Positions 5,406 to 53,455 are shown, counted from the stretch's first letter. The stretch is 54,409 nt of DNA from an uncultured Eubacteriales bacterium (GCA_964445305.1 CAYUKK010000016.1:1-54409), one strand, 5' to 3'. The notes: generated from the sequence alone by a model not told the origin. Program-made: numbers and translations.

Positions 5406-5406
5406 C

Positions 5407-7594: not shown

Positions 7595-7599
7595 GGCCA

Positions 7600-8675: not shown

Positions 8676-8683
8676 GAAGGAAA

Positions 8684-22641: not shown

Positions 22642-24517
22642 CTGGCTTTTCCCGCCGCGATGAACGGTTTTCTCTTTTATTGTAAACGACAAGAATTGTC
22701 ACGAGAATCGAGGCCAATATCGTCGCTAAAATCTGGCGAGCTCGTGAATGCGGCGGACCCTTGTAGAAAGCGACAACTTCGTAGGTTCCGGGAGGCAAGG
22801 GCCCGATCCTTATTCTTGCATCAGGGCCAAGGCTTTTTCTGATGGATGGCTGGCTTAACTCTCTTTGGTTGACCATTATTTTCCAGTCAGGGAAGTAAAT
22901 TTGGTTAATGGTTATCGTGTCCTTCTTGTGGAGCGTTGTCTTGAAGCGAATTCTGAATGGGGAATGGCCTTTTTGGTAGAAGATCTTACTTCTGGATTCT
23001 GTTTCGACAAGGGGTCGGCCGTTTCCTCTCGGCCCCAACCCGATGACTTTTTCGGCGCCGTTTTTTGGCGTGTATTCCCAGGTGACGGCGAATGTGTGAA
23101 ACCCCGTCCTGAGGTTTCTCAAGAACAAATAATATCCCCTTTTGAAATCGACTCGACTTTGCGGTTTAAAGGCCGGCAGTTGCCAGAGAACGGTGATGCC
23201 GATGAGCGCACCGTAGAGCATTTTTTTTAGAACAGGGATTCTGCCCCTCAAGAAAAGGGCCAGGCCGGAAATGGCCAATGCTTGGAAAATCGCTGTGACC
23301 GAGAGCAAACGCCAAGGAAACTGGACAAACCGGAGGGGCAAAAATTTGTCCCACAGGAGGGTGCTCAATGGGCTCATCATAAGAATGAGGACAAGGTAGA
23401 TAAGGAAGGAATGTCGGATGAGTCTCGTTCTGTAGCTTAAGCAGAAACCAAGACAAGCCACCGTAAAGTGGATTGTCCCCAAGGGAAGGGGCAGGCTGTC
23501 ATCCGGCGAAGGACCGGAATTGCCGAACCCCCAGAACCTTGAAAAAAACTGCGGCCAATGAACAACGTGGGCCGATGCCCGGTAAGGACCCTCGATCAAA
23601 CGATTCATTTGGACATAGGGCCTCATCTGGATAAGGGGAAACCAATAGGACGATGTCCACAAAAAAGCCAAGAGTGCTGCGACTGAGATATGGACCAGGT
23701 ATTGATGGCGATAAGCCAATTCCTTTGCCTGGAGTATGGCCAGCAGAGCGAAAGCCGGGACATAGAAAAGCGCCGTCGCCGGATGGGAAAGGATTACCAG
23801 GCCGAAGAAAAACACAAGAAAAGCCAGATTAAGGATGGAGACTCGGCCGTTTATCTCCATGGTCTTGGCGAATCGAAAGAGGAAGAGAAGGGGCAAGGGA
23901 GTAAGGAGCATAGCCATTAATTCGCTCAGGGCGCCCCGGACGAAAAGGTTAACATAAAGGTAGGGAGTGAGCAGGAACATGATGGCCACAAAGAGAGCGG
24001 CGGAGTATTCCTTGACCAGGAGAAGTGCAATTTCAAAAACAGCTATAGAACCAAGGATAAACAGAAAGAGGAGGAGGACATAGAAAACATAGAGGGGATA
24101 TCCGGGCAAGATGGAGAACAGCAGGCCAGCGAAGAAAAAGCCAGGCTGATAAAAAACGAAAGTCGGATATCCATAGCCGCCAAACAAATCGGGCATCCAG
24201 CGGGGATAAAGATTTCCGCTTAAAAACGATTTCCTCACCTGGTCGAGCAAAACGAAATAGCGCCAGTCCTCATGGGAAGAAAACCAGCTACCGCTAAAAA
24301 CAAGGTTGGAAAGGGCCAGAAGGGCAGACAGACAGATGAAAAGGTAGCAAGCAGCCTTAACGAAGAAGAACCGCTTTTGAACAGAGCGGCCGGGAGGCGC
24401 GTTGGCGCGCTGTTTTGCCGCAATCACCATCGGGAGGAAGAATAAATCATGACTCGAGAATTTGTCAAAGGCATGGCCAGGCCGTCGCTGGGAAGATGGC
24501 GTTGCAATCTTCTCCAA
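22637..24517 (-). CDS. Polytopic membrane protein, GT-C / PTPS-related (YfhO-like) glycosyltransferase
   Basis: YPRWMPDLFGGYGYPTFVFYQP, TPY...RGALSE, VQFPWRLL, YFPDW. The true start may be nearer 24430. Confidence 0.75.
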   Translation of the reverse strand: MEKIATPSSQRRPGHAFDKFSSHDLFFLPMVIAAKQRANAPPGRSVQKRFFFVKAACYLFICLSALLALSNLVFSGSWFSSHEDWRYFVLLDQVRKSFLSGNLYPRWMPDLFGGYGYPTFVFYQPGFFFAGLLFSILPGYPLYVFYVLLLFLFILGSIAVFEIALLLVKEYSAALFVAIMFLLTPYLYVNLFVRGALSELMAMLLTPLPLLFLFRFAKTMEINGRVSILNLAFLVFFFGLVILSHPATALFYVPAFALLAILQAKELAYRHQYLVHISVAALLAFLWTSSYWFPLIQMRPYVQMNRLIEGPYRASAHVVHWPQFFSRFWGFGNSGPSPDDSLPLPLGTIHFTVACLGFCLSYRTRLIRHSFLIYLVLILMMSPLSTLLWDKFLPLRFVQFPWRLLSVTAIFQALAISGLALFLRGRIPVLKKMLYGALIGITVLWQLPAFKPQSRVDFKRGYYLFLRNLRTGFHTFAVTWEYTPKNGAEKVIGLGPRGNGRPLVETESRSKIFYQKGHSPFRIRFKTTLHKKDTITINQIYFPDWKIMVNQRELSQPSIRKSLGPDARIRIGPLPPGTYEVVAFYKGPPHSRARQILATILASILVTILVVYNKRENRSSRREKPG

Positions 24518-27253: not shown

Positions 27254-27541
27254 ATGACCATGGTTGAGCCAAAGCCAAAATCCGGCGTCTTCCAGATTGC
27301 TTGCCCCTGCTGCCAATCAATCCTCTGGGTGGATGGAGTTTCCCAGGAAGTCGTCAAGACGGAAAAGCACGCCGCCCGGAAAAAGGGCAGCCTGGATGAC
27401 CTCCTGGCCAAAGAGAAGAAGAGGCAGGAAGAATTCGAACGCAAGTTTGAGGCCACGGCCGAGCTCGAGCGCCAAAAGAAGGAAAAAGCCAGAGAAGCAT
27501 TTGAGAAGGCATTGGGCGAGGCGGAAAAAGAGGAAGAATAG
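27254..27541 (+). CDS. Small hypothetical protein (CPCC zinc-ribbon-like start, charged coiled coil)
   Basis: IACPCCQSILWVD followed by a Glu/Lys-rich helix. Confidence 0.7.
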   Translation: MTMVEPKPKSGVFQIACPCCQSILWVDGVSQEVVKTEKHAARKKGSLDDLLAKEKKRQEEFERKFEATAELERQKKEKAREAFEKALGEAEKEEE

Positions 27542-27608
27542 ACGGCCACGCCATCCCAGGGGCACACGCGGCGTTGAAGTCCTAAAACCCAGCCTCCAGC
27601 CCCTGCGC

Positions 27609-29027
27609 TCAGCTTCCTATCTGGGTCTCATCATCCCGGACCTTTGGGGCCATGGTGAAGCCTGTCAGGCCAAAAATAATGAGGATGATGACCGCCGTAT
27701 AATTCATGATGGCCCAGGGCAGGTAGGAGAAGGTCGGCACACCGATCGTGCCGGTGATGTAGACGCCGGCCATGCTCCAGGGGATGAGGGGGACGATGAT
27801 GGCGCCGCTTTCCTCGATAATCCGGGAGAGATTCTTGGCGGCGAGCTGTTTTTTCTTATAGACAGGCGCCAAGAGTTCACCCGGGATGATCATCGACAGA
27901 TAGGAGCTTCCCGTGACCATGGCCGTGACGATGGCCGAGACAACAGTCGTCACGACGATGCTCCAGACCTTGTTAGCAAAAGTCATGACCCTGTCCAGAA
28001 TCACAGCCAGCATGCCGGTCCGCTGCATGATGCCGCCGAAGCTGAAGGCGGTGAAGGCGACGAGCTGGGTTTCCATCATGCTCATCATCCCGCCCTTGGA
28101 AATCAGCCTGTCGACCGCTTCAACGCCGGTCTGAGATTGAAAGCCCGTGTTCATGGCCGTGGCCACAGCCGTCACCGAAGCCTTCTGAAAAATGATGGCC
28201 AGCGCTCCGGCGGCGAGAGAAGAGAGGAGCATCCCCGGAATGGTCGGCTTCTTGGTGAAGGCGAAATAGAAGACGATGACCATGGGCAGGAGAAGGAGCA
28301 CGTGGAAGCGGAAATTCTCCCGGAGAGTTTTCAGAATAAGGATGACCGTTTCGGATTCGACGGCCTCGCTCTTGTAGCGCAGCCCGATGAAGAAATAGAT
28401 GATGAGGCCGATGAGCCAGGCAGGGACAGCCGACCAGAGCATGTGTTTGATGTGGTCGAAGAGGTTGGAGCCGGCGGCCACTGGAGCCAGGTTGGTGACA
28501 TCAGAAAAGGGAGACATCTTGTCCCCGAAGTAGGCCCCGGCCACGACGGCGCCGGCAGCCGGACCGAGGGGAATCCCCAGGCCCATGGCGATACCCATGA
28601 AGGCAACGCCGAGAGTCCCGATGGTCCCCCAGCTCGTTCCCGTCGCCAGAGAGGTGATGCTGCAAACGAGGCAGGCGGTGAAGAGGAAATACTGAGGCGA
28701 GATGAGCTTCAGGCCATAGAAGATGATCATCGGGATGGTGCCGCAGGCAATCCAGGAACCGATGAGGATGCCCACGCAGAGCATGATGAGGATGGCCGGC
28801 ATGGCTTTGTGGATGCTGTCGACGACACCGCGTTCCATGTCCCGCCAGGAGAAGCGAAGGAAATAGCCCAACAAGCCAGTAAGGAAGGCAGCGGCGATGA
28901 GAAGGACCTGGGGCCGGATCCGGTAAATCCCGTAGCCGACGCCGAGCAGGATGGCCATGGCCAGAAGGGGAATCAGGGCGACGCCAAATCTCGGCTTTTT
29001 TGGAGGACGGGCGCTTTCTTCACTCAT
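27609..29027 (-). CDS. nhaC: NhaC-family Na+/H+ antiporter or amino-acid transporter
   Basis: GTIPMIIFYGL, TGTSWGTIGTLG, GAYFGDKMSPFSD.TNLA, PLIPW. Confidence 0.88.
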   Translation of the reverse strand: MSEESARPPKKPRFGVALIPLLAMAILLGVGYGIYRIRPQVLLIAAAFLTGLLGYFLRFSWRDMERGVVDSIHKAMPAILIMLCVGILIGSWIACGTIPMIIFYGLKLISPQYFLFTACLVCSITSLATGTSWGTIGTLGVAFMGIAMGLGIPLGPAAGAVVAGAYFGDKMSPFSDVTNLAPVAAGSNLFDHIKHMLWSAVPAWLIGLIIYFFIGLRYKSEAVESETVILILKTLRENFRFHVLLLLPMVIVFYFAFTKKPTIPGMLLSSLAAGALAIIFQKASVTAVATAMNTGFQSQTGVEAVDRLISKGGMMSMMETQLVAFTAFSFGGIMQRTGMLAVILDRVMTFANKVWSIVVTTVVSAIVTAMVTGSSYLSMIIPGELLAPVYKKKQLAAKNLSRIIEESGAIIVPLIPWSMAGVYITGTIGVPTFSYLPWAIMNYTAVIILIIFGLTGFTMAPKVRDDETQIGS

Positions 29028-29036
29028 GGGGTCTCC

Positions 29037-30218
29037 TCAGCTGTCTCGATGAAACGTGCGCTGGGCCAGGAGTCTTGTGCCGGCCATCATCCTCCGTCCC
29101 CGCGAAAAGACATCCGTCAGCTCGAGGTTCTCATCGATGAGGAGAATGTCGGCGTCGTTTCCGATGCGGATCTCGCCTTTATGGAGAAGCTTGTAAGCAT
29201 GGGCAGCGTTGGTCGAGAAGAGCCGGGCGCACTCTTCGAAACCAATGACCTTTTGCTCAATGAGCGAGCGGAATTTCTGGAGCAAATCCCTCTCCGTGGC
29301 GATAGTCAGGCCGATGAGGTGGCCAGCCCTGTCAAAGACGGGCAGACTTCCATTGCTGTCCGAACTGATCGTGATTTGGGTCAAAGGAATCTTTTGCTCC
29401 AGACAAAGGCGGATGGCGTCCTCCACCGTGAGGGCGGTCGTCGCCTCGCCCTCTGGTTTTTCCCCCGCTGTGAGGTCGATCATCCCCCCGGCACGGACAA
29501 AGGCCAGCCCTTCTTCCATCAATTCCCTTTTCCGATTGACGTGGGTGGGGATGATTTGAGAAGGAGGAATTTCTGTCTCCCGGAGGAGTCGAAAAAGAAG
29601 CTCGAGGTGGCGTGGCCCCTCGCCGAGGTGGAGATGAAGGATGCCCGCTTTTCCAGAGAGCATCCCGCCGACCCGGCATTCCGCAGCCAGACGAGCAATC
29701 TCTTCCCAGGTCGGCTGGGAGGAGCGGTGGTCGGAGATGGCGATTTCACCCGCGCCGATAACCTTATCGATGAGGACGATGTCGCGGAGGATGCTCCCGG
29801 TGAGGGTCGGCGGGGGAACCCCGTAGGCGCCAGAAAAAATGTAAGTGGTTACGCCTTCGGCTTCCAGGCCGCGGGCTTTAGCCAGGAGGGATTCGAGATG
29901 GCGGGTGACCGAATCCGTGCCCAGACACCCGATGACGGTGGTGACGCCGCTGGAGATGATTTCTTCGATGGAAATCTCCGGCGCTCGGGTAGCCGGACCT
30001 CCCTCTCCACCGCCGCCGAGGATGTGGACATGCGGGTCGACAAACCCGGGAAGGACAATCTTTCCCGCCGCCTCAACGATGTCCAGAGCCAGTCCTTCGA
30101 TGCGAACCCGGCCCGGCTCGGCGATGTCGATGATCGTCGACCCGGCTACCAGAATATCCTTTATTCCCAAGTCCTCGGGCGCATAGAGATGGCCATTTTT
30201 GATCAGGGTAACCATCAT
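29037..30218 (-). CDS. iadA: Isoaspartyl dipeptidase (beta-aspartyl peptidase)
   Basis: PGFVDPHVHILGGGGEGG, GCLGTD, EIAISDHRSSQP, PTHVNR, SSDSNGSLP. Confidence 0.93.
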   Translation of the reverse strand: MMVTLIKNGHLYAPEDLGIKDILVAGSTIIDIAEPGRVRIEGLALDIVEAAGKIVLPGFVDPHVHILGGGGEGGPATRAPEISIEEIISSGVTTVIGCLGTDSVTRHLESLLAKARGLEAEGVTTYIFSGAYGVPPPTLTGSILRDIVLIDKVIGAGEIAISDHRSSQPTWEEIARLAAECRVGGMLSGKAGILHLHLGEGPRHLELLFRLLRETEIPPSQIIPTHVNRKRELMEEGLAFVRAGGMIDLTAGEKPEGEATTALTVEDAIRLCLEQKIPLTQITISSDSNGSLPVFDRAGHLIGLTIATERDLLQKFRSLIEQKVIGFEECARLFSTNAAHAYKLLHKGEIRIGNDADILLIDENLELTDVFSRGRRMMAGTRLLAQRTFHRDS

Positions 30219-30382
30219 TGCCTCCTCGGCCGGCTCAGTTCGTCTGAACCTTCGTCCATCCGCGCTAAATTATCATGATGGGTCGCGAATTACAAGCCGG
30301 CCTGAGATTCCCGAATATTCAGGGAAAGGCCAGCTCGTTTTGGCCTTTTTCTCTTGGTTTGTTAGAATAATAAGGAAATACA

Positions 30383-37744: not shown

Positions 37745-38878
37745 CTAGTCAGGCGGGTGGAGGAAGGAACCGAGACCTTGCTCAAGGATGGCGGCGACAG
37801 GAGGAACGTTTTCGAGGCGCACAGCTTTGTCTGGCTCGAGCGTTTCAAGGCTGGAAAGAAGAGCGTTCACAGCGGCAACGTGGCGAGCCACCCGCAGTCG
37901 AAGAGGGATCCCATCTTCTCCGTAAGGAACAAAAAGCCACCCCAGCCGGGAAGCGCGCGCATAGAATTTGTCCTTTCCGTCGACGATGAGGGAGGACGAT
38001 GGCTTGCCCTTGAGCCGGCCGTGCGAGGCGTTGGGCGTTTCGACGAGGACAGCCTTGATTCCGGCATGGTCACCCCACTCCCGGTGGCTTAAGCCGCGCA
38101 GGTTCACCGGCGAAGCTTCGAGACGGATGTCGAAATTCTGCCCCTGGATGTCCATCAGGGCCAGGGCTGCCAGCTCGGCGCTGTTTTCGTGGAAGACAAT
38201 GGCGTTGATGACGGGATATTCGGGAGCGGATTCATGGAGGTCGATGCCCAGGTCGATCTTCTCCCGGCGGATAAGTTCCATGATGGCATAGGCAATCTTT
38301 TCGGTTAGATTCCCGCTGGCTTTTCCCGGGTAGCAGCGATTGAGATTTCTGGCCTCCATGCCGGAGAGCTTTTGGCCGGGTGGGTTGAGGTAGATGGCAG
38401 GGTCAGGCCACTGGTGAACAGGGTTGGTCAAGCGCGAGCCGAGGCGGAAAAGCCTCGCTCCCCCGGCCGTCGGTATGGCGAACCGCTGCGGGTTTCCCTC
38501 CTGCGGGTCACTGTGGGTGAAACCACTGTTGTTGGCCCGCGGGATGATGAAGAGGCTTCCCCGCACGACCCGGATATTCTCGATAAGGAGGACGGCGGTG
38601 ATGAACCCGGCCGGTTCGTTCGGGTGTTCGCCGCCGAGGAGGAGGATTTTCCCTCCAGCCTCGTTCCCTTGAAAAATATAGATTTCGGTGTCGCCGGGAG
38701 TGTCCTTGAGGCCGGGCAGGTAAGCGCTCAGCATCCGGCGCTCGGTGAGAGCCGGGCCGGGGAAGAGAGGCTCGGGTTCGTGGAGGCTGAGGAAACTCTG
38801 GCCGGTGAAAAAAGTCAGCGCTGCGGCCAGAAAAAGAAAAAGAACGGCCGAGAGCCAGGACGGTGAAATTTTCCCCAT
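37745..38878 (-). CDS. Succinylglutamate desuccinylase/aspartoacylase (M14-like) family Zn peptidase, exported
   Basis: N-terminal TM/signal; GGEHPNEPAG (HxxE), RNLNR, DLHE, VLVET. ATG 38878 lies 2 nt after the upstream small-ORF stop. Confidence 0.82.
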   Translation of the reverse strand: MGKISPSWLSAVLFLFLAAALTFFTGQSFLSLHEPEPLFPGPALTERRMLSAYLPGLKDTPGDTEIYIFQGNEAGGKILLLGGEHPNEPAGFITAVLLIENIRVVRGSLFIIPRANNSGFTHSDPQEGNPQRFAIPTAGGARLFRLGSRLTNPVHQWPDPAIYLNPPGQKLSGMEARNLNRCYPGKASGNLTEKIAYAIMELIRREKIDLGIDLHESAPEYPVINAIVFHENSAELAALALMDIQGQNFDIRLEASPVNLRGLSHREWGDHAGIKAVLVETPNASHGRLKGKPSSSLIVDGKDKFYARASRLGWLFVPYGEDGIPLRLRVARHVAAVNALLSSLETLEPDKAVRLENVPPVAAILEQGLGSFLHPPD

Positions 38879-38880
38879 GG

Positions 38881-39027
38881 TCACTTTATGGAGAGGAGAC
38901 GGAGGAGGAAGAGGACAAAGACGAGGACAAGGGAAGCCTGATTCCATAATTTTTTTTGGCGAAAGAGATATCCAATCATATGCAAGCTCCAATAGAGCAC
39001 CATGAGGAGGTAGAGGAAGCGCAACAT
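38881..39027 (-). CDS. Unannotated 48-aa two-helix membrane protein
   Basis: MLRFLYLLMVLYWSLHMIGYLFRQKKLWNQASLVLVFVLFLLRLLSIK*. AGGAGG SD at 39041-39046; it fills the gap between the DctM-like gene and the peptidase. Confidence 0.75.
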   Translation of the reverse strand: MLRFLYLLMVLYWSLHMIGYLFRQKKLWNQASLVLVFVLFLLRLLSIK

Positions 39028-39045
39028 CTTAAATCTTATCCCTCC

Positions 39046-40314
39046 TTATAGAAATTTATCCAGAAGGGGAGCAAGGAGGAGCATCCCCATTCCTGCCGCC
39101 ATCTGAAGAAGAGCGGGAACGAGGCAATAACGGATGACTTTAAAGAAATTCTTCTCCCCGACTACTTGGGCGGCGAAACGGCCGGAGATGGCGGCGGGCG
39201 GAACGAGGTCCCCGAGGCTGGTGATTGCGGAGAGAGCCGCGGAGGTGAGGAGAGCGTTCTTGTTGACGAGAGCGAGCATGAAGGGAATGCCCAGGATGGA
39301 GGCTGACCCGAAGGTGGAAACGCCGCCGAAGGCCGGCATGCTCAAGCTGATTCCGAGGTAGAGTAGAAAAGAGGGTAAAGAAAGGATGGCCATGACCGTC
39401 CAACCACGGGCGCCGGTCAGGGTCATGACCTGGATGAACATCCCCACCCCAGCCAGAATGGCCAGAATGGGCATGGCCTCTTCGAGAGCTTTGGCTGAGG
39501 CTTTAAGAAAATTGAAACGCCGGCCGCAAAAAATTCCCACCAGGCTCGAAGCCATGAACACACCGGGAATGCCGATGTCGGGGATTATGCGGGGGAATAG
39601 CCCGGGTCCGGCCATCAGCGCAGCCAGGACAATGAAGGGGACATACAGCCTGAAGCCCACCCGGGAGCGGATGGACGGAGGGAGAAGGCTGAGCATTTCC
39701 TCCCGGCTGATTGCCCTCAAGTCTCGGTAGCCGATGACGAGCGGGATCAGGATGGCAAGCGGGATGACGAGGAGGAGAAGGGGCAAGGTTACTCCCACAT
39801 AGGGCATGTCCACTCCTCCACCCATGATCATGATCAGGATATTCACTGGCGGTGCAATCATACCCAGGATGCCGCCCATGCAGATGAGAGCGCCAGTCTT
39901 CAACCGCGGCAGGCCCAGCTTCATCATGACCGGAGCGATGATCGGTCCGGTGCTGAGGATGGCGGCCGTCGAAGAGCCGGTGAGCATGCCGGGGAACATG
40001 AGGACGAGCATGACGACAAGCAGGAGCATGATTCGACTGCGGTAGAATGTCTGGAGCAGGAGAGCCGTGACGCTGTCCAGTATGCCCGAGGCCTCGAGAA
40101 CTTTGATAAATAGAGTGGCCGTGAGAATGATCAGAATAGTGTCGAAATAGCCGAAGCTTCCCTCGATGAGATGGCGAAAACTCAGTCCCTCCCCGCCGGC
40201 GAGCAAACCGGCCAGAGCGGAAAAAGCGAGGGCTATCCCGATGGGGAGCCTGGCCGTCATGGCCAGGAGAATGAACACGGCCAGCATGATGGAAAAGAGG
40301 AGAGCTTCGGACAT
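39046..40314 (-). CDS. TRAP DctM-like (ion-transporter superfamily) permease
   Basis: LPIGIAL, GMLTGSS, GMIAPPVN, GDLVPP; about 11-12 hydrophobic segments. Confidence 0.8.
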   Translation of the reverse strand: MSEALLFSIMLAVFILLAMTARLPIGIALAFSALAGLLAGGEGLSFRHLIEGSFGYFDTILIILTATLFIKVLEASGILDSVTALLLQTFYRSRIMLLLVVMLVLMFPGMLTGSSTAAILSTGPIIAPVMMKLGLPRLKTGALICMGGILGMIAPPVNILIMIMGGGVDMPYVGVTLPLLLLVIPLAILIPLVIGYRDLRAISREEMLSLLPPSIRSRVGFRLYVPFIVLAALMAGPGLFPRIIPDIGIPGVFMASSLVGIFCGRRFNFLKASAKALEEAMPILAILAGVGMFIQVMTLTGARGWTVMAILSLPSFLLYLGISLSMPAFGGVSTFGSASILGIPFMLALVNKNALLTSAALSAITSLGDLVPPAAISGRFAAQVVGEKNFFKVIRYCLVPALLQMAAGMGMLLLAPLLDKFL

Positions 40315-40374
40315 CGGCCAATCTGCCTCAAAATTCCTTTCCGGGCGCCTCGCTACGCTCGCCTTCGGCCTGGA

Positions 40375-40935
40375 TTATCGGAATGCCTTGCGGAGCGGCT
40401 CGAGGGCTTCGGCTGCTTTCTCCACTTCGACGAGGGGTATGTTTTTCTCTCGGCAAATTCGGGTGAAAAAGCCGTCGGCGTTGCCGGATTTGACGACAAT
40501 GGCCATCTTGGCCAGGGGAAGGAACTCGGCCATGAGGTCATCCGTCTGCTGACCCCGTCGCGATTCTCCGCCCAGGTGAAGGCAAAGAATGGGGATTCCC
40601 TTTTTCCCAGCCTCGGCGGTAAGGCCTCTGACTCGCTCCCTCTCCTTGTCTATGTCCAGTCCGGCCGCTCCCAATCCTTTCATGCTGGCGCCGAGGACGA
40701 GGCCAAGCGTTTTCATATTCTCAAGGTCGACGCCTGTTGCCAGCTTCTCAAGTCGGTAATTCAGGCCCGCCCGCTTGGCCAGGACGGCGGCCAGCTGAAC
40801 CTCAGCATTCTGACCTGCCGAAGTGATGAGGAGGGGCTGCTCGAAGAGGCTGGTTTCCTCCATCGTGGCGTGAATAAGAATGGGCGAAAGGGTCAGGAGG
40901 ATCGGGATGGGAAAAGCATTGAGGAGTTTCTTCAT
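40375..40935 (-). CDS. Exported protein resembling the DUF6305 family
   Basis: AAGGA SD then the MKKLL signal peptide; LITSAGQ, GASMKGLGAAG, LHLGGESRRG. The family name is from memory and unverified. Confidence 0.65.
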   Translation of the reverse strand: MKKLLNAFPIPILLTLSPILIHATMEETSLFEQPLLITSAGQNAEVQLAAVLAKRAGLNYRLEKLATGVDLENMKTLGLVLGASMKGLGAAGLDIDKERERVRGLTAEAGKKGIPILCLHLGGESRRGQQTDDLMAEFLPLAKMAIVVKSGNADGFFTRICREKNIPLVEVEKAAEALEPLRKAFR

Positions 40936-40975
40936 TTGGCTATCCTTTCTTTGATTCTTCAAGTGTTCTTTCCAT

Positions 40976-42718
40976 TCAATACCCGGCGCCCCAACCATCA
41001 CGTCGGGAGTCGGCGGCGCCGAGGATGATTTTCCTGTCGCGCCAGACCAGGATTCCCTGGGCTCCGCCAAAATACTTGTCGTAGGCTTCCCTGACCCGGA
41101 CTTCATGGCCCAGCCGGCGGAGCTCCGCGACGGTCGCCTCGGCGATGCGCGATTCGAGGGCGATGGGCCGAGGCTGGCCGCCAACGGAATAGGAGAAGAA
41201 GCGAGGAGCTTCGATCGCCTCATCGAGGGACATCCTGAATTCCGTGATGTTGAGGATAATCTGGGCCAGAGAGGAAAAGATTCGCGTCCCGCCAGGAGAG
41301 CCAAGGACAAGAAACGGCTTGCCATCGCGGAAGAGGATGAGCGGCGCCATCGAGCTCACGGGACGATGCCCGGGCGCGGGCGCATTCAGAGAATCGGGCG
41401 ACGACGAAAAATCTGCCATCTGGTTATTGAGCAGGAAACCTGTTCCTTCAGGCACGATCCCGGTGCCGAAAAAATCGTTGATCGACTGGGTCAGGGAGAC
41501 GATGTTTCCTTCACGGTCGATGACACAAAGATGGGTGGTGTTACTTCGCCTGTCGCTCTCGTTATCGAACTCGCCGGGAGGGTAGGAGCCGAGCGCCCGG
41601 TCAGGCCGGATAGCCGAAGCGATAGAGGCAGCATATTCTCTCGACAGCAGCTTTTCCACCGGCACGGCGATAAAATGAGGGTCCCCCAAATAGCGCTCCC
41701 GGTCGGCAAAGATGAAGCGGAGAGCTTCACTCAGATGGTGGATGTAAAGGGATGAATTGTGGCCCCAGCCGCGGAGGGGCCAGTTTTCAGCGATGCGAAG
41801 GAGCTGGAGGAGGTGGAGGCCACCTGAAGCCGGGGGAGGAGCAGTGACGAGGGCAAAGTTTTTGTAAGTTCCCCGGAGAGGGCTGACTTCTTCGGCCTCG
41901 TAAGCGGCCAGGTCTTCGAGGGTCAGAATTCCCTGCTTAGCCTGCACGGCCGCGACGATCCTTCGGGCAATATCTCCCCGGTAAAATTCCTCGATGCCTT
42001 TTTCGGCCAGGACCCGGAAAGTCCGGGCTAAATCAGGATTCCTGTAATCCTCGCCGGGCTCATAGGGGAAGCCATCTTTAAGGTAACAACTTCCCTCTTC
42101 CAGGTTGAGGGCCAGCCTTTCGTACTCATCCTTATTGATGTCGCTAAAAGTTTGGCTGACGGGGAATCCTTGTTCGGCGATTTGGATGGCTCGCTGGGCT
42201 GCTTGGGCGAGGGAGCGTGTACCATAGCGACGGAGAGCCAGGGCCCAGCCCGCTGGCGCTCCGGGTACGGCCACAGCCAGGCCGGTCGCTGTCCGCCAGT
42301 GGTCCTCCGCTTCTCCCTTTTCCTTGAACATGGTCGGCCAGGCACCGGCGGGTGCTTTTTCTCGATAGTCGATCACAGCCACCTGGCGGGATTTGGCCAG
42401 ATAAAGGACCATGAACCCACCGCCTCCTATCCCGGAGGCAAAAGGCTCGGCGGCGTTCAAGGCGAAGGCTGTCGCCACCGCCGCATCGACGGCGTTGCCG
42501 CCACTTTTAAGCATGTCGAGGCCGGCTTCAACAGCCAGGGGGTTGGCAGCAACGACCAGGCCATGTCGACCGATATAATGGACGGGCGTGTGCCGGTCAA
42601 CGGGCGGAGGCGGGGAAACGCGCGGCTGGTTCTGGCAAGAGACCAGGAAAGAGAAGCCAACGAGCAGCTCGATTGCCAGGCTCAAGGCCAGGGAAGATGG
42701 CTTATCTTTTGGGTTCAC
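40976..42718 (-). CDS. ggt: Gamma-glutamyltransferase (lipoprotein)
   Basis: GGNAVDAAVA, SGIGGGGF, DYRE.AP, catalytic NTTH, LLNNQM.DF, RP.SSM.P, GSPGG, ADSRR; lipobox LVSC. Likely GTG start at 42718. Confidence 0.93.
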   Translation of the reverse strand: MNPKDKPSSLALSLAIELLVGFSFLVSCQNQPRVSPPPPVDRHTPVHYIGRHGLVVAANPLAVEAGLDMLKSGGNAVDAAVATAFALNAAEPFASGIGGGGFMVLYLAKSRQVAVIDYREKAPAGAWPTMFKEKGEAEDHWRTATGLAVAVPGAPAGWALALRRYGTRSLAQAAQRAIQIAEQGFPVSQTFSDINKDEYERLALNLEEGSCYLKDGFPYEPGEDYRNPDLARTFRVLAEKGIEEFYRGDIARRIVAAVQAKQGILTLEDLAAYEAEEVSPLRGTYKNFALVTAPPPASGGLHLLQLLRIAENWPLRGWGHNSSLYIHHLSEALRFIFADRERYLGDPHFIAVPVEKLLSREYAASIASAIRPDRALGSYPPGEFDNESDRRSNTTHLCVIDREGNIVSLTQSINDFFGTGIVPEGTGFLLNNQMADFSSSPDSLNAPAPGHRPVSSMAPLILFRDGKPFLVLGSPGGTRIFSSLAQIILNITEFRMSLDEAIEAPRFFSYSVGGQPRPIALESRIAEATVAELRRLGHEVRVREAYDKYFGGAQGILVWRDRKIILGAADSRRDGWGAGY

Positions 42719-43256
42719 CGCTTTTTTCTTCTCCCAGGAGGCTGGCGATTTCTTCTTCACTCGGCAGGTCGTCGAGGCTATTCAACCCGAAGTGGGCGAG
42801 GAACCTGTCAGTTGTCCGGTAGATCAAAGGCTTGCCCGGACTCTGCTTGCGGCCGACAATCCGGATGAGCTTTTTTTCGAGGAGTGTTTTGAGTGTGTAA
42901 GAAGAATCGACGCCGCGCAGGGCCGAAATCTCGGAGAGAGTGATGGGTTGATGGTAGGCAATGATGGACAGCGTCTCCAGGGCAGCCGAAGAAAGCTTGC
43001 TTTTTTTGTCAATCTTGAGGAGGCGCTTGACCCAGGGATGACAAGCCGGCTTGGTGCAGAAAATGTAACCGCCACCGGTTTGGGTAATCTGGATGCCGTG
43101 ACCGTCCTGCTGGTAGCATTGAATGAGTTCCGCGAGAGCTCGCTCGACCTCGGCCTCCGGCACGTCGGCCAGGACTTCCCGGATTCTGTCGAGCGTCAGG
43201 GGCTCGAGAGAAACGAAGATGAGCGATTCGATGATGTCCTTCAATCCCGCGTTCAT
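42702..43256 (-). CDS. scpB: SMC-Scp complex subunit ScpB
   Basis: IESLIF, LS.AALETL.IIAY.QP.T, RGV, PG.P.IY.TT..FL..FGL..L.DLP. Confidence 0.95.
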   Translation of the reverse strand: MNAGLKDIIESLIFVSLEPLTLDRIREVLADVPEAEVERALAELIQCYQQDGHGIQITQTGGGYIFCTKPACHPWVKRLLKIDKKSKLSSAALETLSIIAYHQPITLSEISALRGVDSSYTLKTLLEKKLIRIVGRKQSPGKPLIYRTTDRFLAHFGLNSLDDLPSEEEIASLLGEEKSGEPKR

Positions 43257-48216: not shown

Positions 48217-49797
48217 TTAGCTCTTGAGAATTTTTTCGACTTCGTCCCTATCGACATCCAGGATGTAGGGGATGCCGCTCACCCGGGCTGCATCCTGGGT
48301 GAGGGCAGCGATGTCGTCGCGGGTGATGTAGCCGAGGCCGAACTTGCGGTTTCCGGCCATGAGCTGACGCAAGCCCTGGCTCAGCCGCTTGAAATAGGAA
48401 TAGAGTCCCAGCGCACCGGTCGGGATATCGTTGAACTTCTCGCCGTATTTTCTCTTGAGCTCCGGCGCCGTGACGAAGATTTCTTCGGCCGTGCTGCCGA
48501 AGCGCTCGACATAGACGGGAATCTGCCCCTCGGCGATGCGCTTGCCGATGGTTTTCCCGACCATGGTCGCGGCCATCGGTCCCCTGGCCATGCCCACAGC
48601 CTTGGCATAGGGAGCGCCCAGGGCTAAAGCCTTGAAAATCTGGTCCTCGAAGGTGATCCCGCCGCCGAAGACAATATCCGGGACATATTGGCCGGTCTTC
48701 GCCAGCCGATGGGCATACTGGTAGGTGAGAGACCAGATTTCTACTCCCGGGATACCCCATTCGTTCATCATCCGCCACGGGCTCATGCCCGTGCCGCCCC
48801 CAGCGCCGTCGACCGTGAGGAGGTCAATCCTGGCCTTGGAGGAATACTTGACCGCCCGGGCCAAATCAGCGGGACGGTAGGCGCCGGTCTTGAGGAAGAT
48901 ATACTTGGCGCCAGCGCGGCGGAGTTCCTCGACGCGGCGGAGAAAGCTCTCCTCCTCGACCATGCCCAGCCGGGAGTGGCGCTCGAACTCTTTGAAGCTT
49001 CCTTTTTCGAAAGCCTGGATAACACTCGGGTCGTCCGGGTCGGGCAGCACGATGTAGCCCCTTCTCTTGAGCTCCTGCGCTTTGGCCAGGCTCTTGATCT
49101 TGACCTCGCCGCCGATATCCTTGGCTCCCTGCCCCCACTTGAGCTCAACCGCCTCAACCCCCAGTTTTTCGATGACGTATTCCTGGACTCCCAGGCGGGT
49201 GTCCTCGACATTTGCCTGGACGACAACGGCGCCGTAGCCATCGTCCTGCCATGTCTGGAAAAGCTTGACCCGGGTCTCCATATCCGGAGAGCGGACGATG
49301 CGGCCATTCTTAATTTCTGCCTCCTCGTCCATGGCGCAGACGTTCTCACCGATGGTCAGGATGGTCCCGGCCAGGGCGGCTCCGATGGCCAACCCGGCCC
49401 AGTTCTGCTTGGCTACGTTGGTGGATCCCATTCCCGAGATGATGAAGGGAACTCGGAGCTTAATCCCCTTATCTCGGCCGACCCGAGTTTCGATGGTGAC
49501 TTTTTCGAAGGTGGCTTTGTCGGGGTCGGCCTCAACGCCATAAGCGCCCGCGGCCGTGCCCATGATGGTGAAGTGGGAGAGGTCAACAGGGTAATCTTTT
49601 TCCGAAGCGGCAGTGATGATGCCGAAAGGCTGGGGGTAGAGGACTTCGGCTCCGCGGTAGGCAGACTTGCCGATTTCGCACATGCCGATGCAGCCGTCCA
49701 CACAGGTGACGCACATGCCGCTAAACGGGCTGATCGATCCTTCGGTTCTGTTCTTGGTTAAAGTCGCTGCACTCCGGTTGAGTTTTGTGTAGGCCAT
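48217..49797 (-). CDS. Stand-alone FMN-binding glutamate synthase domain protein with an N-terminal Cys cluster
   Basis: CVTCVDGCIGMC, IGENV, ELKWGQGAK.IGG, LKTG, VDGAGGGTG, FGGG, KALALGA. No glutamine amidotransferase domain. Confidence 0.85.
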   Translation of the reverse strand: MAYTKLNRSAATLTKNRTEGSISPFSGMCVTCVDGCIGMCEIGKSAYRGAEVLYPQPFGIITAASEKDYPVDLSHFTIMGTAAGAYGVEADPDKATFEKVTIETRVGRDKGIKLRVPFIISGMGSTNVAKQNWAGLAIGAALAGTILTIGENVCAMDEEAEIKNGRIVRSPDMETRVKLFQTWQDDGYGAVVVQANVEDTRLGVQEYVIEKLGVEAVELKWGQGAKDIGGEVKIKSLAKAQELKRRGYIVLPDPDDPSVIQAFEKGSFKEFERHSRLGMVEEESFLRRVEELRRAGAKYIFLKTGAYRPADLARAVKYSSKARIDLLTVDGAGGGTGMSPWRMMNEWGIPGVEIWSLTYQYAHRLAKTGQYVPDIVFGGGITFEDQIFKALALGAPYAKAVGMARGPMAATMVGKTIGKRIAEGQIPVYVERFGSTAEEIFVTAPELKRKYGEKFNDIPTGALGLYSYFKRLSQGLRQLMAGNRKFGLGYITRDDIAALTQDAARVSGIPYILDVDRDEVEKILKS

Positions 49798-49831
49798 GAT
49801 TACCTCCTCATGTTCGCGATATCTATAAAAC

Positions 49832-50554
49832 TCACTCTTTTCTTTGGTTAGATGGATTTACTTCTTTTTTTGGGGCCAGAGCTTCTTGAACACAGGTGCC
49901 GCACCGGCCAGCATCGTACATCCAGCACTGAAGCTCGTCGTAGACGTCAAGGCAGGTCGGCTCCATTGTCAAGCAGGCGTTGCAGACATCTGTGTCCGGC
50001 TGGGGTCCCTGGCAACGCAGCTGGCAAGCCGGACAGATGTAGATACAGCCGCCGCAGAGGCGGCACTCCTCGGAGCGAATATCGAACGGGGTCGAGATTT
50101 TCCGGTTGTGGCCGCGGTTCTGAAAGCCGATGGCCCGGCCTTCCATCTGCTCGGCACACATGCGGACGCAGAGGCCGCACAGGATGCACTCCTCATTGCG
50201 GACCTTGAATCGCATCCGGCTGACGCCAAACTTAGAGGCGAGGTCCTGGATCGTCTTGGAGTTCGGGGCAACCGAGAGCATGAGCTCAATCATCATCCGG
50301 CGGGCTTCGATGACTCTCTTCGTATCAGTGCGGACAATGAGTCCATCTTCAGCCGGATAAGTGCAGGAAGAGACGAGTTTTGTGCGCGGTTCCTGGCCGA
50401 TTTCAACCAGGCAGAGGCGGCAACCGCCGAAAGGGCTCAATCCCTCGTGATAACAGAGAGTCGGAATTTCCAGGCCATAAAATTTGGCCGTCTCGAGCAC
50501 CGTCCATCCTTCTTCGGCTTTGACTTCAAGTCCGTTTAGAGTCAGCGTGATCAT
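49832..50554 (-). CDS. NuoG/HydA N-terminal-like Fe-S protein with a Cys-rich tail
   Basis: MITLTLNG, IPTLC..GGCRLC..SSC, CILCGLCVRMC, CRLCGGCIYICP, then eight further Cys. ATGA overlap with the upstream gene. Confidence 0.88.
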   Translation of the reverse strand: MITLTLNGLEVKAEEGWTVLETAKFYGLEIPTLCYHEGLSPFGGCRLCLVEIGQEPRTKLVSSCTYPAEDGLIVRTDTKRVIEARRMMIELMLSVAPNSKTIQDLASKFGVSRMRFKVRNEECILCGLCVRMCAEQMEGRAIGFQNRGHNRKISTPFDIRSEECRLCGGCIYICPACQLRCQGPQPDTDVCNACLTMEPTCLDVYDELQCWMYDAGRCGTCVQEALAPKKEVNPSNQRKE

Positions 50555-52452
50555 TGTTTTTCCTCCACGATGCGGATTGCTTCCTCTCTCTGGGCTTCGA
50601 CAGCCTCGTAGCGGCAAGCCTCGAGGCAGGCACCACACTTGATGCACTTGGCGTGGTCAATGACGTGGATTTCCTTAAGGGCACCCTTGATGGCCTCACT
50701 TGGGCATGCCTTCATGCAGGCCAAGCACCCGACGCACTTTTCTGGGACGACGACATACCTGATCAGGGCTTTGCACACTCCAGCTGGACACCTTTTTTCT
50801 TTGATGTGAGCTTCATATTCTTCTTTGAAGTAGCGGAGGGTTGACAGCACGGGGTTGGCGGCTGTTTGACCGAGGCCGCAAAGGGAGGCGTCCTTGACAG
50901 CGAGGGCCAACTCCTCGAGTAAATGGATATCTTCTTCTTTCCCCCTTCCTTGGGTGATATCGCTAACGATTTCCCACATGCGCTGGGTGCCCTCGCGGCA
51001 GGAAATGCACTTGCCGCATGACTCGTCTCGGAGAAAATTCAAAAAGTACTTGGCCACATCGACCATGCAGGTCTTTTCGTCCATGACGATCATGCCCCCC
51101 GAGCCCATGATCGACCCCGCTTTGGTCAGGCTCTCGTAGTCGATGGGCAAGTCCAGAAGCCTTTCGGGGAGACAGCCACCCGACGGTCCGCCCGTCTGGA
51201 CGGCTTTGAACTTTTTCCCATCGGGAATCCCACCTCCGATATCGAAAATGATTTCACGGAGAGTGATGCCCATCGGAACCTCAACCAAGCCGGTGTTGTT
51301 GATTTTGCCAACGAGAGAGAAAATCTTGGTTCCCTTGCTGCCGTTTGTCCCGATGCGGGCATACCATTCAGCGCCTTTATCGATGATGATGGGGACGGTA
51401 CCCCAGGTTTCCACGTTGTTGATGGTCGTCGATTTTCCCCACAGACCTTTGACCACCGGGAACGGAGGTCTTTGCCTCGGCTCGCCGACACGGCCTTCGA
51501 TCGAGGCAATCATGGCCGTCTCTTCGCCACAGACAAACGCGCCAGCTCCTTTGGCGATATGAAGGTCAAAACTGAAGTCTGTGCCGAGGATGTTGTCTCC
51601 GAGAAGGCCGAGCTCCCTGGCCTGCTCGATGGCCAGGCTGACGTGCTTTACGGCCAGAGGATATTCGTCGCGGACATAAACATACCCTTCCCTGGCACCA
51701 ATGGCATAGGCGCCGATGAGCATGCCTTCGAGCACCCGATGAGGATTTCCTTCGAGAAGACTCCGGTCCATGTAAGCCCCTGGGTCTCCCTCATCCGCGT
51801 TGCAGATAATGTATTTAAGGTCGCCCCGTGCTTTCCGGGCAAGGTCCCATTTTGCACCTGTGGGAAAGCCGGCCCCACCACGTCCCCTCAGGCCAGAGGC
51901 TTTAATTTCGCCGATGACTTGCTCCGGAGGCATCGAGCTCACCACCTTAACAAAGGAAAGATAGCCGCCGATGGAAAGATAATCATCAATCTCGGTTGGG
52001 TCGATGAGCTCATTATCGCCAAGGACGATTCTTTTCTGCTTTCGGTAAAAGGGAATCTCCTTTTCCTGGATGAATTTTTCCCCCGTTACGGGGTCCATGT
52101 AGAGGAGGTTTTCGAGGACCCTGTTGTGGAGAATGGTTTCAGTGATGATGGCCTGAGCGTTTCGGCCATCGACCTTTTGGTAGAAGATTTGTTGGGGATA
52201 AATGATGATGTTTGGCTCGGCTTCACAAAAACCGTGGCAACCCGTGACCCGGATCGACACTTCATCTTGTAGGTTTTCCTTCTTGATCACTTTTTTTAGG
52301 GCATCGACAACTTTGAGCGAGCCCCTCGCCTGACCGCACGTGCCAGCCGAGACAGTCAAAACGGGTCTTGTCTCGGCCTGTCTCTCTGCTTGGCGTCGGG
52401 AGACAAGCTCCTTGAAGTCATCAATCGAGCTGATCTTTTTTCTCGATTTCAT
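50551..52452 (-). CDS. NuoF/HydB-like FMN/NAD-binding diaphorase subunit (long form), paralog 2
   Basis: GLRGRGGAGFPTG, ADEGDPGAYMDR, GGPSGG, CGKCISCREG, HIKEKRCPAGVC, CVGCLACMKACP, CIKCGACLEAC. Confidence 0.93.
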   Translation of the reverse strand: MKSRKKISSIDDFKELVSRRQAERQAETRPVLTVSAGTCGQARGSLKVVDALKKVIKKENLQDEVSIRVTGCHGFCEAEPNIIIYPQQIFYQKVDGRNAQAIITETILHNRVLENLLYMDPVTGEKFIQEKEIPFYRKQKRIVLGDNELIDPTEIDDYLSIGGYLSFVKVVSSMPPEQVIGEIKASGLRGRGGAGFPTGAKWDLARKARGDLKYIICNADEGDPGAYMDRSLLEGNPHRVLEGMLIGAYAIGAREGYVYVRDEYPLAVKHVSLAIEQARELGLLGDNILGTDFSFDLHIAKGAGAFVCGEETAMIASIEGRVGEPRQRPPFPVVKGLWGKSTTINNVETWGTVPIIIDKGAEWYARIGTNGSKGTKIFSLVGKINNTGLVEVPMGITLREIIFDIGGGIPDGKKFKAVQTGGPSGGCLPERLLDLPIDYESLTKAGSIMGSGGMIVMDEKTCMVDVAKYFLNFLRDESCGKCISCREGTQRMWEIVSDITQGRGKEEDIHLLEELALAVKDASLCGLGQTAANPVLSTLRYFKEEYEAHIKEKRCPAGVCKALIRYVVVPEKCVGCLACMKACPSEAIKGALKEIHVIDHAKCIKCGACLEACRYEAVEAQREEAIRIVEEKQ

Positions 52453-52945
52453 CTTTCTTCTCTTTCTTTCCGTACTTTTTCAGGATGGAGGCGACTTTGC
52501 GGATGGACGTTTGAGCGTGGTAATCGCCATCGACGACAACCACTGGCCCGATGGCGCAGCAGCCTAAGCAATTGACTGTTTCCAAGGTAAATTCCCTGTC
52601 GGCGGTTGTTTCGCCCGCCTGGATGTTGAGAATTCGCTCAAACTCCTGGAGAATCTTGGGTCCTCCCCGAACATGGCAAGCTGTACCGAGACAGACAGTA
52701 GCCACATGCTTTCCTCGCGGCTTGAGGCTGAAGGCCCGATAGAAAGTGGCCACGCCGACGACGTCTATGAGGGGAATGCCGAGCGAGTGCGAGACGAGTT
52801 TGAGCGCATCTTGAGGAAGATAGTTGTATTCGGCCTGAATCTCCTGAAGGATAGCGATGAGAGCTCTCTTCCGGGCCTCATGCTTGGCGATGATGGATCT
52901 TATCTTGGTCTCGATGGCTGGCACGTTTTCCTCCGCGTTAGCCAT
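52421..52945 (-). CDS. NuoE/HydC-like [2Fe-2S] subunit, paralog 2
   Basis: LIAILQEIQ..YNYLP, VCLGTACHVRG, NCLGCCAIGP. Confidence 0.92.
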   Translation of the reverse strand: MANAEENVPAIETKIRSIIAKHEARKRALIAILQEIQAEYNYLPQDALKLVSHSLGIPLIDVVGVATFYRAFSLKPRGKHVATVCLGTACHVRGGPKILQEFERILNIQAGETTADREFTLETVNCLGCCAIGPVVVVDGDYHAQTSIRKVASILKKYGKKEKKDEIEKKDQLD

Positions 52946-53103
52946 GGCTTGAGGGGGAAAATGGAGTCATGGCGAGACTTTGAGCTTGGCTCCGTAGGGA
53001 AAGGAAAGATATAAGGAGTTGGTGATGTCGAAAGCCGAATAATATTTATGACTCCTTCTTATAAATATGAACCGAAAATATTATATCAAAAAAATGAGGC
53101 CCT

Positions 53104-53133
53104 TATATAACAGAGAGAATTCCCCTTTGTCAA
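53104..53133 (-). promoter_or_regulatory. sigma70-type promoter of the nuoE/F/G'-glutamate synthase operon
   Basis: Minus strand TTGACA-17/18 nt-TTATAT/TATATA with TGn. Confidence 0.6.
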
Positions 53134-53146
53134 GGCCGAGAGGGAC

Positions 53147-53455
53147 CCCAAAATTGGCGTTAGAAATACCCGATTAATCCTGTCGTGGTTCACCCCCCAT
53201 GAGGTTCGGGGTTGGGATTGCGAAGCACGCTCGTTTCCCCAGCGAGGAAACTCGCTCCGACTCAGCCTTCGCTCTTCTCTCGCTTGGCTCGAGAAACCGT
53301 GCCCGCTCAGGCTTCGACGGGCTTTCTCACCCAAACTCCTCGCCTGTTCCCCCTGGCATCAAACGCTCCGGTCAGCGTTCCGAGACGCTATCGAAAGCTT
53401 TGTTTTTTATATATTAACCATCCCTTGATGATAATTCTCTATCGCCAAATTTGGG
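53147..53455. repeat. Self-complementary non-coding repeat element, copy 2 (short form)
   Basis: Inverted ends CCCAAAATTGGCGTTAGA (53147-53164) and TCTATCGCCAAATTTGGG (53438-53455); same orientation as copy 1. Confidence 0.85.

Follow-up and report, generated by a model that had tools for sequence, protein, structure and literature searches.

A conserved four-gene cassette encoding a predicted Bfu-type module and a divergent, glutamate synthase-like flavoprotein in an uncultured Eubacteriales bacterium

The known enzymes of the Bfu family link NADH and ferredoxin with H2, formate, NADPH or aldehydes as the further partner, and the StnABC transhydrogenase is said to combine a Bfu core with a GltD-like NADPH/FAD module. 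Three described systems bear on the locus reported here. WorABCSL of Acetomicrobium mobile (PDB 9MQX; PMC12318220, available in part) is a tungsten aldehyde oxidoreductase–Bfu, and a Type 2 enzyme in the scheme of PMC9304861 (available in part); its BfuA has no catalytic domain, and a separate catalytic module lies downstream of cluster A4, docked by the WorA C-terminus. In Nfn-Bfu (PMC12018979, available in part) a Bfu core is joined to a GltD-like NADPH/FAD module. The third is the NADPH-dependent glutamate synthase GltBD, with its flavin mononucleotide (FMN) barrel, together with the split archaeal and the putative F420-dependent versions of it. The subject of this paper is a cassette of four genes in a 54,409-nucleotide stretch of DNA from an uncultured Eubacteriales bacterium (GCA_964445305.1, CAYUKK010000016.1:1-54409), the whole of which we call the window. 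The cassette encodes NuoE-, NuoF- and NuoG-like proteins and a GltB-like FMN subunit, in that order (E-F-G-B; Table 1).

With WorABCSL the cassette shares a BfuBC core and a short BfuA which lacks both A3 and a catalytic domain. The catalytic partners differ, being the tungstopterin protein WorL and the polyferredoxin WorS in the one and presumably a single FMN barrel of the Glu_synthase family in the other, as do the BfuA tails, which consist of a four-Cys zinc finger and an adaptor alpha-helix in WorA and contain eight conserved Cys in the cassette protein. Nfn-Bfu resembles a long form of the cassette, described below, in its GltD-like module, but this is carried on BfuA in Nfn-Bfu and on the C-terminus of BfuB in the long form; the copy in the window has no GltD-like domain, and Nfn-Bfu has no GltB-like subunit. 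The FMN barrel of GltBD has the motifs KxxQGAK, RHS and DGGTGxSP in common with the cassette FMN subunit, and in both systems a pyridine-nucleotide module, either fused or separate, would supply the electrons by way of iron–sulfur (FeS) clusters (PMC8097209, available in part). Unlike GltBD, the cassette and its genome lack the glutamine amidotransferase and the central or GXGXG domains, the Cx5Cx4C [3Fe-4S] motif is replaced by an N-terminal four-Cys motif, and the input module is NuoE/NuoF/BfuA. Full-text literature searches found no published description of a NuoEF/Bfu module with a GltB-like subunit. In PMC9304861, 18 of 57 BfuB clades are uncharacterised; the available main text of that paper does not mention glutamate, and its supplement may list the cassette clade among the uncharacterised ones.

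The evidence best supports reading these genes as a Bfu complex close to Type 2, with a divergent flavoprotein of the glutamate synthase (GltS) type as its presumed catalytic subunit. Stated in full, the four genes would encode one BfuABC (HydABC-type) FeS-flavoprotein complex, with the GltS-type FMN protein as catalytic subunit and 2-oxoglutarate, NH4+ and glutamate as its substrates, and to this we give a probability of roughly 0.55. The components of the reading differ in strength. That the four subunits form a complex is very probable. The substrate, to which retained motifs, GltD fusions and neighbouring genes point, is a tentative assignment at a little under even odds, and ferredoxin-coupled bifurcation is a possible property which we would predict with somewhat less assurance again.

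The four genes are a conserved unit. A first-pass annotation of the window had proposed the pairing of an NADH/ferredoxin module with a glutamate synthase-like subunit, and a lack of linkage of the glutamate synthase-like gene in other genomes had been set beforehand as one result that would refute it; the survey does not bear out that refutation. In a survey of 98 loci (18 + 80, two sets which may overlap), E-F-G-B was complete in 77, comprising 75 at above 100 bits and two (L108 and L112) with a weaker NuoE-like match; 17 loci were cut by contig ends and four truly depart. In L114 the FMN-subunit relative (68% identical) stands alone, with FeoAB upstream; in L045 a 43%-identical relative adjoins a CCG-domain protein; and L058 has no recognisable nuoE-like gene. 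In L052 (1651-6971) TraG/TrwB-like, Mrr-like and helix-turn-helix genes occupy the place of nuoE and nuoF upstream of a truncated BfuA-like gene; either a mobile element may have broken up this cassette, or the contig may be a chimera. Beyond the four genes, neighbours are common only to the nearest relatives. As an additional observation, four loci have a second FMN-subunit gene copy (572–733 bits) beside the cassette (L062:1129-2712, L068:9183-10781, L094:8987-10576 and L091:3-1703).

The cassette is also widespread. A search of species-representative genomes, seeded with an alignment of 13 closer FMN-subunit sequences, gave at least 605 candidate stretches, of which at least 597 encode a relative of the FMN subunit; in the best 80 of these at least 597 stretches the protein is 67–92% identical. 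Within the phylum of the window's own genome, 20 of 201 genomes have a homologue. The cassette relatives carry more than 15 phylum labels, archaeal ones included, although labels on metagenome-assembled genomes (MAGs) may be unreliable. Among them are Zixibacteria, Ignavibacteria, Planctomycetota, Bacteroidetes, Dehalococcoidia, Latescibacterota, Desulfobacterota lineages, Bacillota, Thermoplasmata, Methanobacteriota and Altiarchaeales, and names of Aminicenantes MAGs stand on close homologues of the FMN subunit. The carrier L062 is a MAG labelled Dethiobacter alkaliphilus.

The NuoF-like protein is predicted to be a B subunit of the Bfu type, with every Bfu-specific ligand set present bar one Cys of B5. 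Pfam finds Complex1_51K (E 1.8e-46), SLBB and NADH_4Fe-4S (E 7.3e-34) in it, with matches to Fer4, Fer4_10 and Fer4_9 over residues 566–623, and it contains the motifs GAYMDR and GGPSGG. The B1 [4Fe-4S] ligands (Cys 479, 482, 485 and 525) are invariant in the alignment, and two C-terminal CxxCxxCxxxC motifs (C573/576/579/583 and C603/606/609/613) provide for B3 and B4. The B2 site of BfuB consists of Cys, Cys/Thr, His, Cys and Cys spanning the B1 motif, and its His is missing in just 8 of 1558 BfuB sequences and, according to the available part of the source, absent from non-bifurcating homologues (PMC9304861). The corresponding residues here are C462, T500, H549, C555 and C560, and their spacing (+38/+49/+6/+5) exactly equals that between C438, C476, H525, C531 and C536 of A. 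mobile, as given in the same paper. The N-terminal thioredoxin-like domain (B5) has three Cys only (C39, C72 and C76), with Ser35 in the place of the first B5 Cys of the window's other HydB-like protein; across 82 aligned homologues only three Cys positions are conserved, and the reduced set is thus common to the cassette family as a whole. Among proteins of solved structure, the closest matches are to B subunits of bifurcating enzymes. The best PDB match, over the full length, is 7t2r_B (802.5 bits), and 7q4v_B, 8a6t_B, 9n5u_B (737.7 bits), 9mqx_B (728 bits) and 7p5h_B also match at full length; Complex I Nqo1 (2fug_1) gives 406.6 bits over the core only. Thus, with the B1, B2 and B3/B4 ligands in place and the top PDB matches all bifurcating B subunits, the earlier assignment of this NuoF paralogue to the HydB type is upheld.

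The two smaller subunits of the module agree with this picture. The NuoE-like protein matches 2Fe-2S_thioredx (Pfam, E 1.2e-49), and its CxxxxC and CxxxC motifs can be read in the translation; against the NCBIfam HoxE/NuoE models it scores below the cut-off except with NF005722 (143.7 against 141). The NuoG-like protein appears to belong to the short Type 2 (WorA-like) set of BfuA proteins, with A1, A2 and A4 present and A3 and the catalytic domain absent. It has Pfam matches to Fer2_4 (E 4.9e-17) and to a 4Fe-4S dicluster domain (Fer4_7), and the Cys of the A1 [2Fe-2S] site (C34, C45, C48 and C64) and of the two [4Fe-4S] motifs, A2 and A4 (C123–133 and C164–174), are conserved in 36 homologues. 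For a His-ligated A3 there is no His/Cys motif at residues 85–122 and no match to Pfam NADH-G_4Fe-4S_3. Among solved structures it is nearest to WorA of WorABCSL (9mqx_A, E 2.5e-36, residues 3–209). The C-terminal tail, which extends past the part aligned with WorA, has about eight conserved Cys (177, 181, 191, 194, ~201, 210, 218 and 221) and is kept in all 36 aligned cassette homologues. The AlphaFold2 model of this subunit has a mean predicted local distance difference test score (pLDDT) of 63.3, falling below 50 in the tail.

The FMN subunit resembles glutamate synthase without being a member of that family. Its Glu_synthase match in Pfam (E 7.9e-19; 68.5 bits against a cut-off of 20.4) is partial, the best stretch spanning profile positions 185–310 of 369, and it has no NCBIfam match. 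The AlphaFold2 model (pLDDT 87.7) is an FMN TIM barrel, with matches to FMN-barrel folds at Z 26–28 (Foldseek, VIA-align), and by sequence or profile the only PDB matches are designed TIM barrels. When profiles were aligned with hhalign against the FMN domains of six canonical GltB proteins of the same phylum, the probability was 81% (E 1.2e-5) over 222 columns, and ELKWGQGAK was paired with IKMAQGAK, FERHS with RVRHS, and DGAGGGTGMSP with SGxDGGTGASP. The GltB motifs KxxQGAK, RHS and DGGTGxSP are in this way retained. The Lys and Arg of the first two motifs are those which we take to bind 2-oxoglutarate in GltS; in the FMN subunit K226 and R273 are invariant in 13 cassette-linked orthologues and variable in more distant relatives. 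Of the five Cys in the protein (29, 32, 36, 40 and 154), four form its sole Cys cluster, the N-terminal C29-x2-C32-x3-C36-x3-C40; the six canonical GltB domains have Cx5Cx4C (C365, C371 and C376). Because it has no Cx5Cx4C motif, and its genome has neither amidotransferase nor GXGXG, the protein is not a canonical glutamate synthase. The original description of it as a GltB-type FMN domain therefore survives in part: the Glu_synthase match, the barrel and the motifs are there, and the [3Fe-4S] motif and the amidotransferase and GXGXG domains are not.

The family of the FMN subunit is small and distinct. Out of 1.84 billion cluster representatives, 1122 match it at E ≤ 0.001 and 189 at E ≤ 1e-30. 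The gene is single-copy in its own genome, where a weak second Glu_synthase match, on contig C179, proved to be IMP dehydrogenase. A weak search for longer relatives fused to E, F or G gave none at E 1e-30 among 7999 candidates. In one protein of 800 residues (P0253) two [4Fe-4S] clusters and an FrhB/FdhB-like F420-type domain are fused to a 39%-identical relative, which brings to mind the F420-dependent glutamate synthases postulated in methanogens (PMC3448663 and PMC3087415, both available in part).

The NuoF homologues occur in two forms. Among the 80 with a full core, 35 end in a ferredoxin-type domain, as in the window, and 45 end in Fer4_20 and Pyr_redox_2, that is, a GltD-like NAD(P)H/FAD module. 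The long and short forms interleave on a FastTree tree of the NuoF core, with the other HydB-like protein of the window as root and a topology taken without support values. In addition, the short form of the window and the long form of L046 are 78% identical over residues 1–564, and the likeness stops just past the B2 site. The C-terminal module has therefore apparently been exchanged repeatedly, and since the GltD-like module replaces the ferredoxin domain in so many relatives, the third partner seems exchangeable between ferredoxin and NAD(P)H. One locus in an Aminicenantes-labelled MAG (L057:264-8581) contains, in series, a long NuoF-GltD, NuoE, a short NuoF, a second BfuA-like protein (259 residues), the cassette-type BfuA and the FMN subunit; these two nested modules could be an intermediate of such an exchange. 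The window's own genome also has an orphan NuoF-GltD fusion of 1050 residues on another contig (L139:4098-7250, contig C178), which has no NuoE-, BfuA- or GltB-like neighbours; in its core it shares 72.6% identity with the first HydB-like protein of the window and 54% with the cassette NuoF.

We then turn to the genomic context of glutamate and nitrogen metabolism. The window's own genome, 92.8% complete, has no match to PF00310 (GATase_2) or PF01493 (GXGXG); as controls, the two families gave hits in 13 and 14, respectively, of 14 reference genomes. Neither an amidotransferase nor a GltD-like gene was found among the 48 open reading frames (ORFs) of the window that were scanned. The latter result is in keeping with the first-pass annotation, which had noted the lack of these partners. 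The genome has one free GltD-like gene, off the window contig, two ELFV dehydrogenases and two glutamine synthetase genes. In the 98 loci, 684 flanking ORFs were clustered and one representative of each cluster was scanned by Pfam. Sigma-54 activators with a receiver domain (NtrC-type) were found beside the cassette in 26 loci, ELFV (glutamate-type) dehydrogenases (GDH) in 14, an uncharacterised protein of 125 residues in 9, PPDK_N-like proteins in 8, and NrpR-type regulators and class I/II aminotransferases in 4 each. The NrpR-type genes (Pfam NRD1_2) follow immediately after the cassette in L070, L078 (6113-7120), L092 and L096; NrpR is a nitrogen repressor that senses 2-oxoglutarate. A 2-oxoglutarate dehydrogenase adjoins the cassette of L037. 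A link of the cassette to glutamate and ammonium is supported by context of this kind only, together with the retained QGAK and RHS motifs.

The distribution of the GXGXG domain was also compared with that of the cassette. It is present in 3 of the 20 phylum genomes with an FMN-subunit homologue (one of them a strong match, in a frame of ~1500 residues) versus 81 of the 181 without, a tally which includes the unpublished genome G049, itself without the homologue. It is absent from all 17 genomes searched in the class, eight with the cassette and nine without, and from four of five carrier genomes of other phyla. Since the whole class lacks GXGXG, the contrast follows phylogeny and we do not use it as evidence. 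Separately, the window itself has a run of glutamate-theme genes on the minus strand (37745-42760), comprising an AstE/AspA-like deacylase, a DctM-like transporter, DUF6305 and a gamma-glutamyltranspeptidase, the last of which (40976-42760) is ~5.5 kb from the cassette; parts of this run are common only to the nearest relative, L028. A second gamma-glutamyltranspeptidase gene (L139:9452-11311) is found 2 kb downstream of the orphan NuoF-GltD fusion.

In the mechanism we propose, BfuC (NuoE-like) and BfuB (NuoF-like) would form the NADH/FMN core, with the additional sites that mark bifurcating members, and the C-terminal domain of BfuB, with its two [4Fe-4S] clusters, would be the docking place for ferredoxin. 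The short BfuA, through A1, A2, A4 and its Cys-rich tail, would carry electrons between this core and the FMN subunit, which may dock on the BfuA tail or on the C-terminal domain of BfuB. The FMN subunit would take or give electrons via its N-terminal four-Cys cluster, in replacement of the canonical [3Fe-4S], so that the probable wiring is from the BfuA tail to that cluster. At the FMN, the reaction would most likely be the interconversion of 2-oxoglutarate plus free ammonia with glutamate, without glutamine. The potentials are about −320 mV for NADH, about −450 to −500 mV for ferredoxin and about −130 mV for 2-oxoglutarate + NH4+/glutamate, and therefore allow both NADH-driven ferredoxin reduction and chemistry assisted by reduced ferredoxin. 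In the former, 2-oxoglutarate/NH4+ would serve as the high-potential acceptor; in the latter, amination would be driven by NADH together with reduced ferredoxin.

A number of observations weigh against a bifurcating, glutamate-linked complex. The fold of the FMN subunit is about equally near to alpha-hydroxy-acid oxidases, to type-2 isopentenyl diphosphate isomerase (IDI-2) and to GltS, with GltS (1ofd) 10th in Foldseek and outside the top 50 entries by VIA Z; because many FMN barrels score nearly equal, the fold leaves the substrate undecided. No GltS chain was found in the PDB at E up to 1, whether with phmmer or with a 39-sequence profile. The subunit has E231 where the GGQ motif has Q, it offers no counterpart to the Cx5Cx4C [3Fe-4S] motif, and no Cys follows the barrel. 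With its two ELFV dehydrogenases and two glutamine synthetase genes, the organism would not need the enzyme for making glutamate, and sigma-54 activators with a receiver domain are not specific to nitrogen control. The idea that the cassette simply replaces glutamate synthase (GOGAT) was rejected, as all 17 class genomes are without GXGXG regardless of the cassette. As to bifurcation, the N-terminal [2Fe-2S] site of the NuoF-like protein has only three Cys, and where a GltD module replaces the ferredoxin domain a classical ferredoxin-dependent bifurcation is unlikely; given these GltD-form relatives, bifurcation may not be the conserved function.

Part of this evidence would fit the same complex with an FMN subunit that acts on some other substrate. 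Candidates are another 2-oxo acid or imino acid, an alpha-hydroxy acid such as lactate or 2-hydroxyglutarate, and an unrelated bond of the C=C or C=N kind; the likeness to GltS would then come from common descent of the barrel alone. In fold, the subunit matches L-lactate oxidase, flavocytochrome b2, glycolate oxidase and IDI-2 at least as well as it matches GltS, and neither sequence nor profile finds GltS in the PDB. There is also a 40-residue insertion between QGAK and RHS, the PPPHHDIYSIEDL block has been lost, the search of the 92.8%-complete genome gave no partner with glutaminase function, 84 of the 98 loci have no GDH neighbour and most flanks are unrelated to nitrogen metabolism. Against this, KxxQGAK, RHS and DGGTGxSP align with those of GltB, with K226 and R273 invariant in the 13 orthologues; GDH, NrpR, aminotransferase and 2-oxoglutarate dehydrogenase neighbours recur; and in 45 of 80 relatives the cassette has taken up, by fusion, GltD, the natural partner of GltB. 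On balance we regard another substrate as unlikely, yet as a serious competitor to 2-oxoglutarate and ammonia. The missing B5 Cys and the repeated swapping, at the same position on the NuoF core tree, of ferredoxin-type and GltD-like C-termini could instead point to a plain NADH-dependent reductase which does not bifurcate, NuoEF having replaced GltD as the pyridine-nucleotide input and either C-terminus wiring internally to the FMN subunit and not to an external ferredoxin. From the potentials given above, reduction of 2-oxoglutarate/NH4+ by NADH would be exergonic without ferredoxin, and in GOGAT the clusters of GltD feed GltB (PMC8097209). Such a reductase is rather unlikely, for the B2 His/Cys site and B3/B4 are present, features which PMC9304861 reports as lacking in characterised non-bifurcating homologues; the best solved relatives are all bifurcating enzymes, and direct wiring of NuoF to the FMN subunit would leave the conserved BfuA and its special tail without a role.

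A common complex might also be dispensed with altogether, leaving a free NADH:ferredoxin module and a separate, ferredoxin-dependent FMN enzyme that is merely co-regulated with it. In favour of this are the FMN-protein relatives that occur without the module (68% identical in L114 and 43% in L045), the one fused to an FrhB-like domain instead, and the lack of any E, F or G fusion of the FMN protein in the weak search among longer proteins. We nevertheless consider it improbable, since across phyla 77 of the 98 loci have the same invariant order, with overlaps suggestive of translational coupling, all 36 aligned homologues possess the Cys-rich tail of BfuA beyond the part aligned with WorA, and in WorABCSL, by analogy, the catalytic module is docked on the C-terminus of BfuA (PMC12318220).

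If the reading of a Bfu complex with a glutamate synthase-type flavin subunit is true, the Bfu family gains a reaction of amino-acid or nitrogen metabolism. It could also explain the handling of glutamate in many uncultured anaerobes without GOGAT, and the loci with a ferredoxin domain and those with GltD would together form a natural experiment in which the module on the low-potential side of a bifurcating core has been changed. The most far-reaching version of the proposal is a new class of Bfu enzyme with 2-oxoglutarate + NH4+/glutamate as its third substrate, which would form or oxidise glutamate independently of amidotransferase and of ATP, couple this high-potential pair to NADH and ferredoxin by flavin-based bifurcation or confurcation, and exist in ferredoxin- and NAD(P)H-linked versions; through it, anaerobes of many phyla could connect the assimilation of nitrogen, or the fermentation of amino acids, directly with their low-potential electrons. 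Taken with all its parts, we hold this version to be doubtful.

The four ORFs are present on the minus strand with the overlaps and spacing first described for them, and GAYMDR, GGPSGG, the B2-type site, the two C-terminal [4Fe-4S] motifs, the three-Cys N-terminus and CxxCxxxCxxxC can each be read in the translations. The nuoE-like and nuoF-like genes overlap by 32 nucleotides, the nuoF-like stop is overlapped by the nuoG-like start in the sequence ATGA, and the gap between the nuoG-like and FMN-subunit genes is exactly 34 nucleotides. The longest nuoG-like ORF (49832-50647) would overlap the nuoF-like gene by 97 nucleotides, and the most likely start, as in 35 homologues, is the ATG at 50554 (MITLTLNG). 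The possible promoter in Table 1 was seen by direct reading and was not called by the consensus scan. Scans of the window for promoters and terminators gave 3 and 7 sites, respectively, not above shuffled sequence, and the sigma-54 promoter pattern had 19 matches where 20.4 were expected, with none in 52946-53400. The stretch is present in two DNA runs, both of hot-spring metagenomes, and no RNA run is listed with it.

Table 1. Features of the cassette. Coordinates are those of the whole window and derive from ORF listing and translation; aa, amino acids
Feature	Position	Strand	Basis or remark
NuoE/HoxE/BfuC-like thioredoxin-like [2Fe-2S] subunit, 174 aa	52421..52945	-	Pfam 2Fe-2S_thioredx
BfuB/HydB-type NuoF homologue, 633 aa	50551..52452	-	Pfam, ligand residues, PDB matches
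Short NuoG-N-terminal/BfuA-like FeS subunit, 240 aa	49832..50554	-	Pfam, Cys conservation
Divergent GltS-type FMN TIM barrel, 526 aa, presumed catalytic subunit	48217..49797	-	Pfam Glu_synthase, model
Possible sigma-70-type promoter, TTGACA-17 nucleotides-TTATAT	53105..53133	-	~160 nucleotides upstream of the nuoE-like start; lead only

Elsewhere in the window, two ORFs have no Pfam match at E 1e-5 (27264-30278, plus strand, 1004 residues; 22637-24517, minus strand, 626 residues). The other HydB-like protein belongs to a first module on the plus strand (9228-13697), which ends in a protein of 585 residues (11940-13697) with a BfuA/HoxU-like N-terminus (residues 2–187) and the C-terminal part of HdrA, equivalent to positions 262–639 of the HdrA2 model. 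The N-terminal part of HdrA (positions 1–258) is a separate gene (4473-5405), adjoining HdrC/HdrB-like genes (3096-4543), and between the two parts are a homologue of HydS-like sensory [FeFe]-hydrogenase (6215-7594) and DRTGG, HATPase and PHP genes. The first module is not a hydrogenase, the partner parts being HdrA-like instead; its genes (3096-13697) suggest a Bfu core joined to an HdrA that has been split in two. The window thus holds two BfuBC pairs with different partners, in agreement with the first-pass proposal that one diaphorase chassis would serve two outputs.

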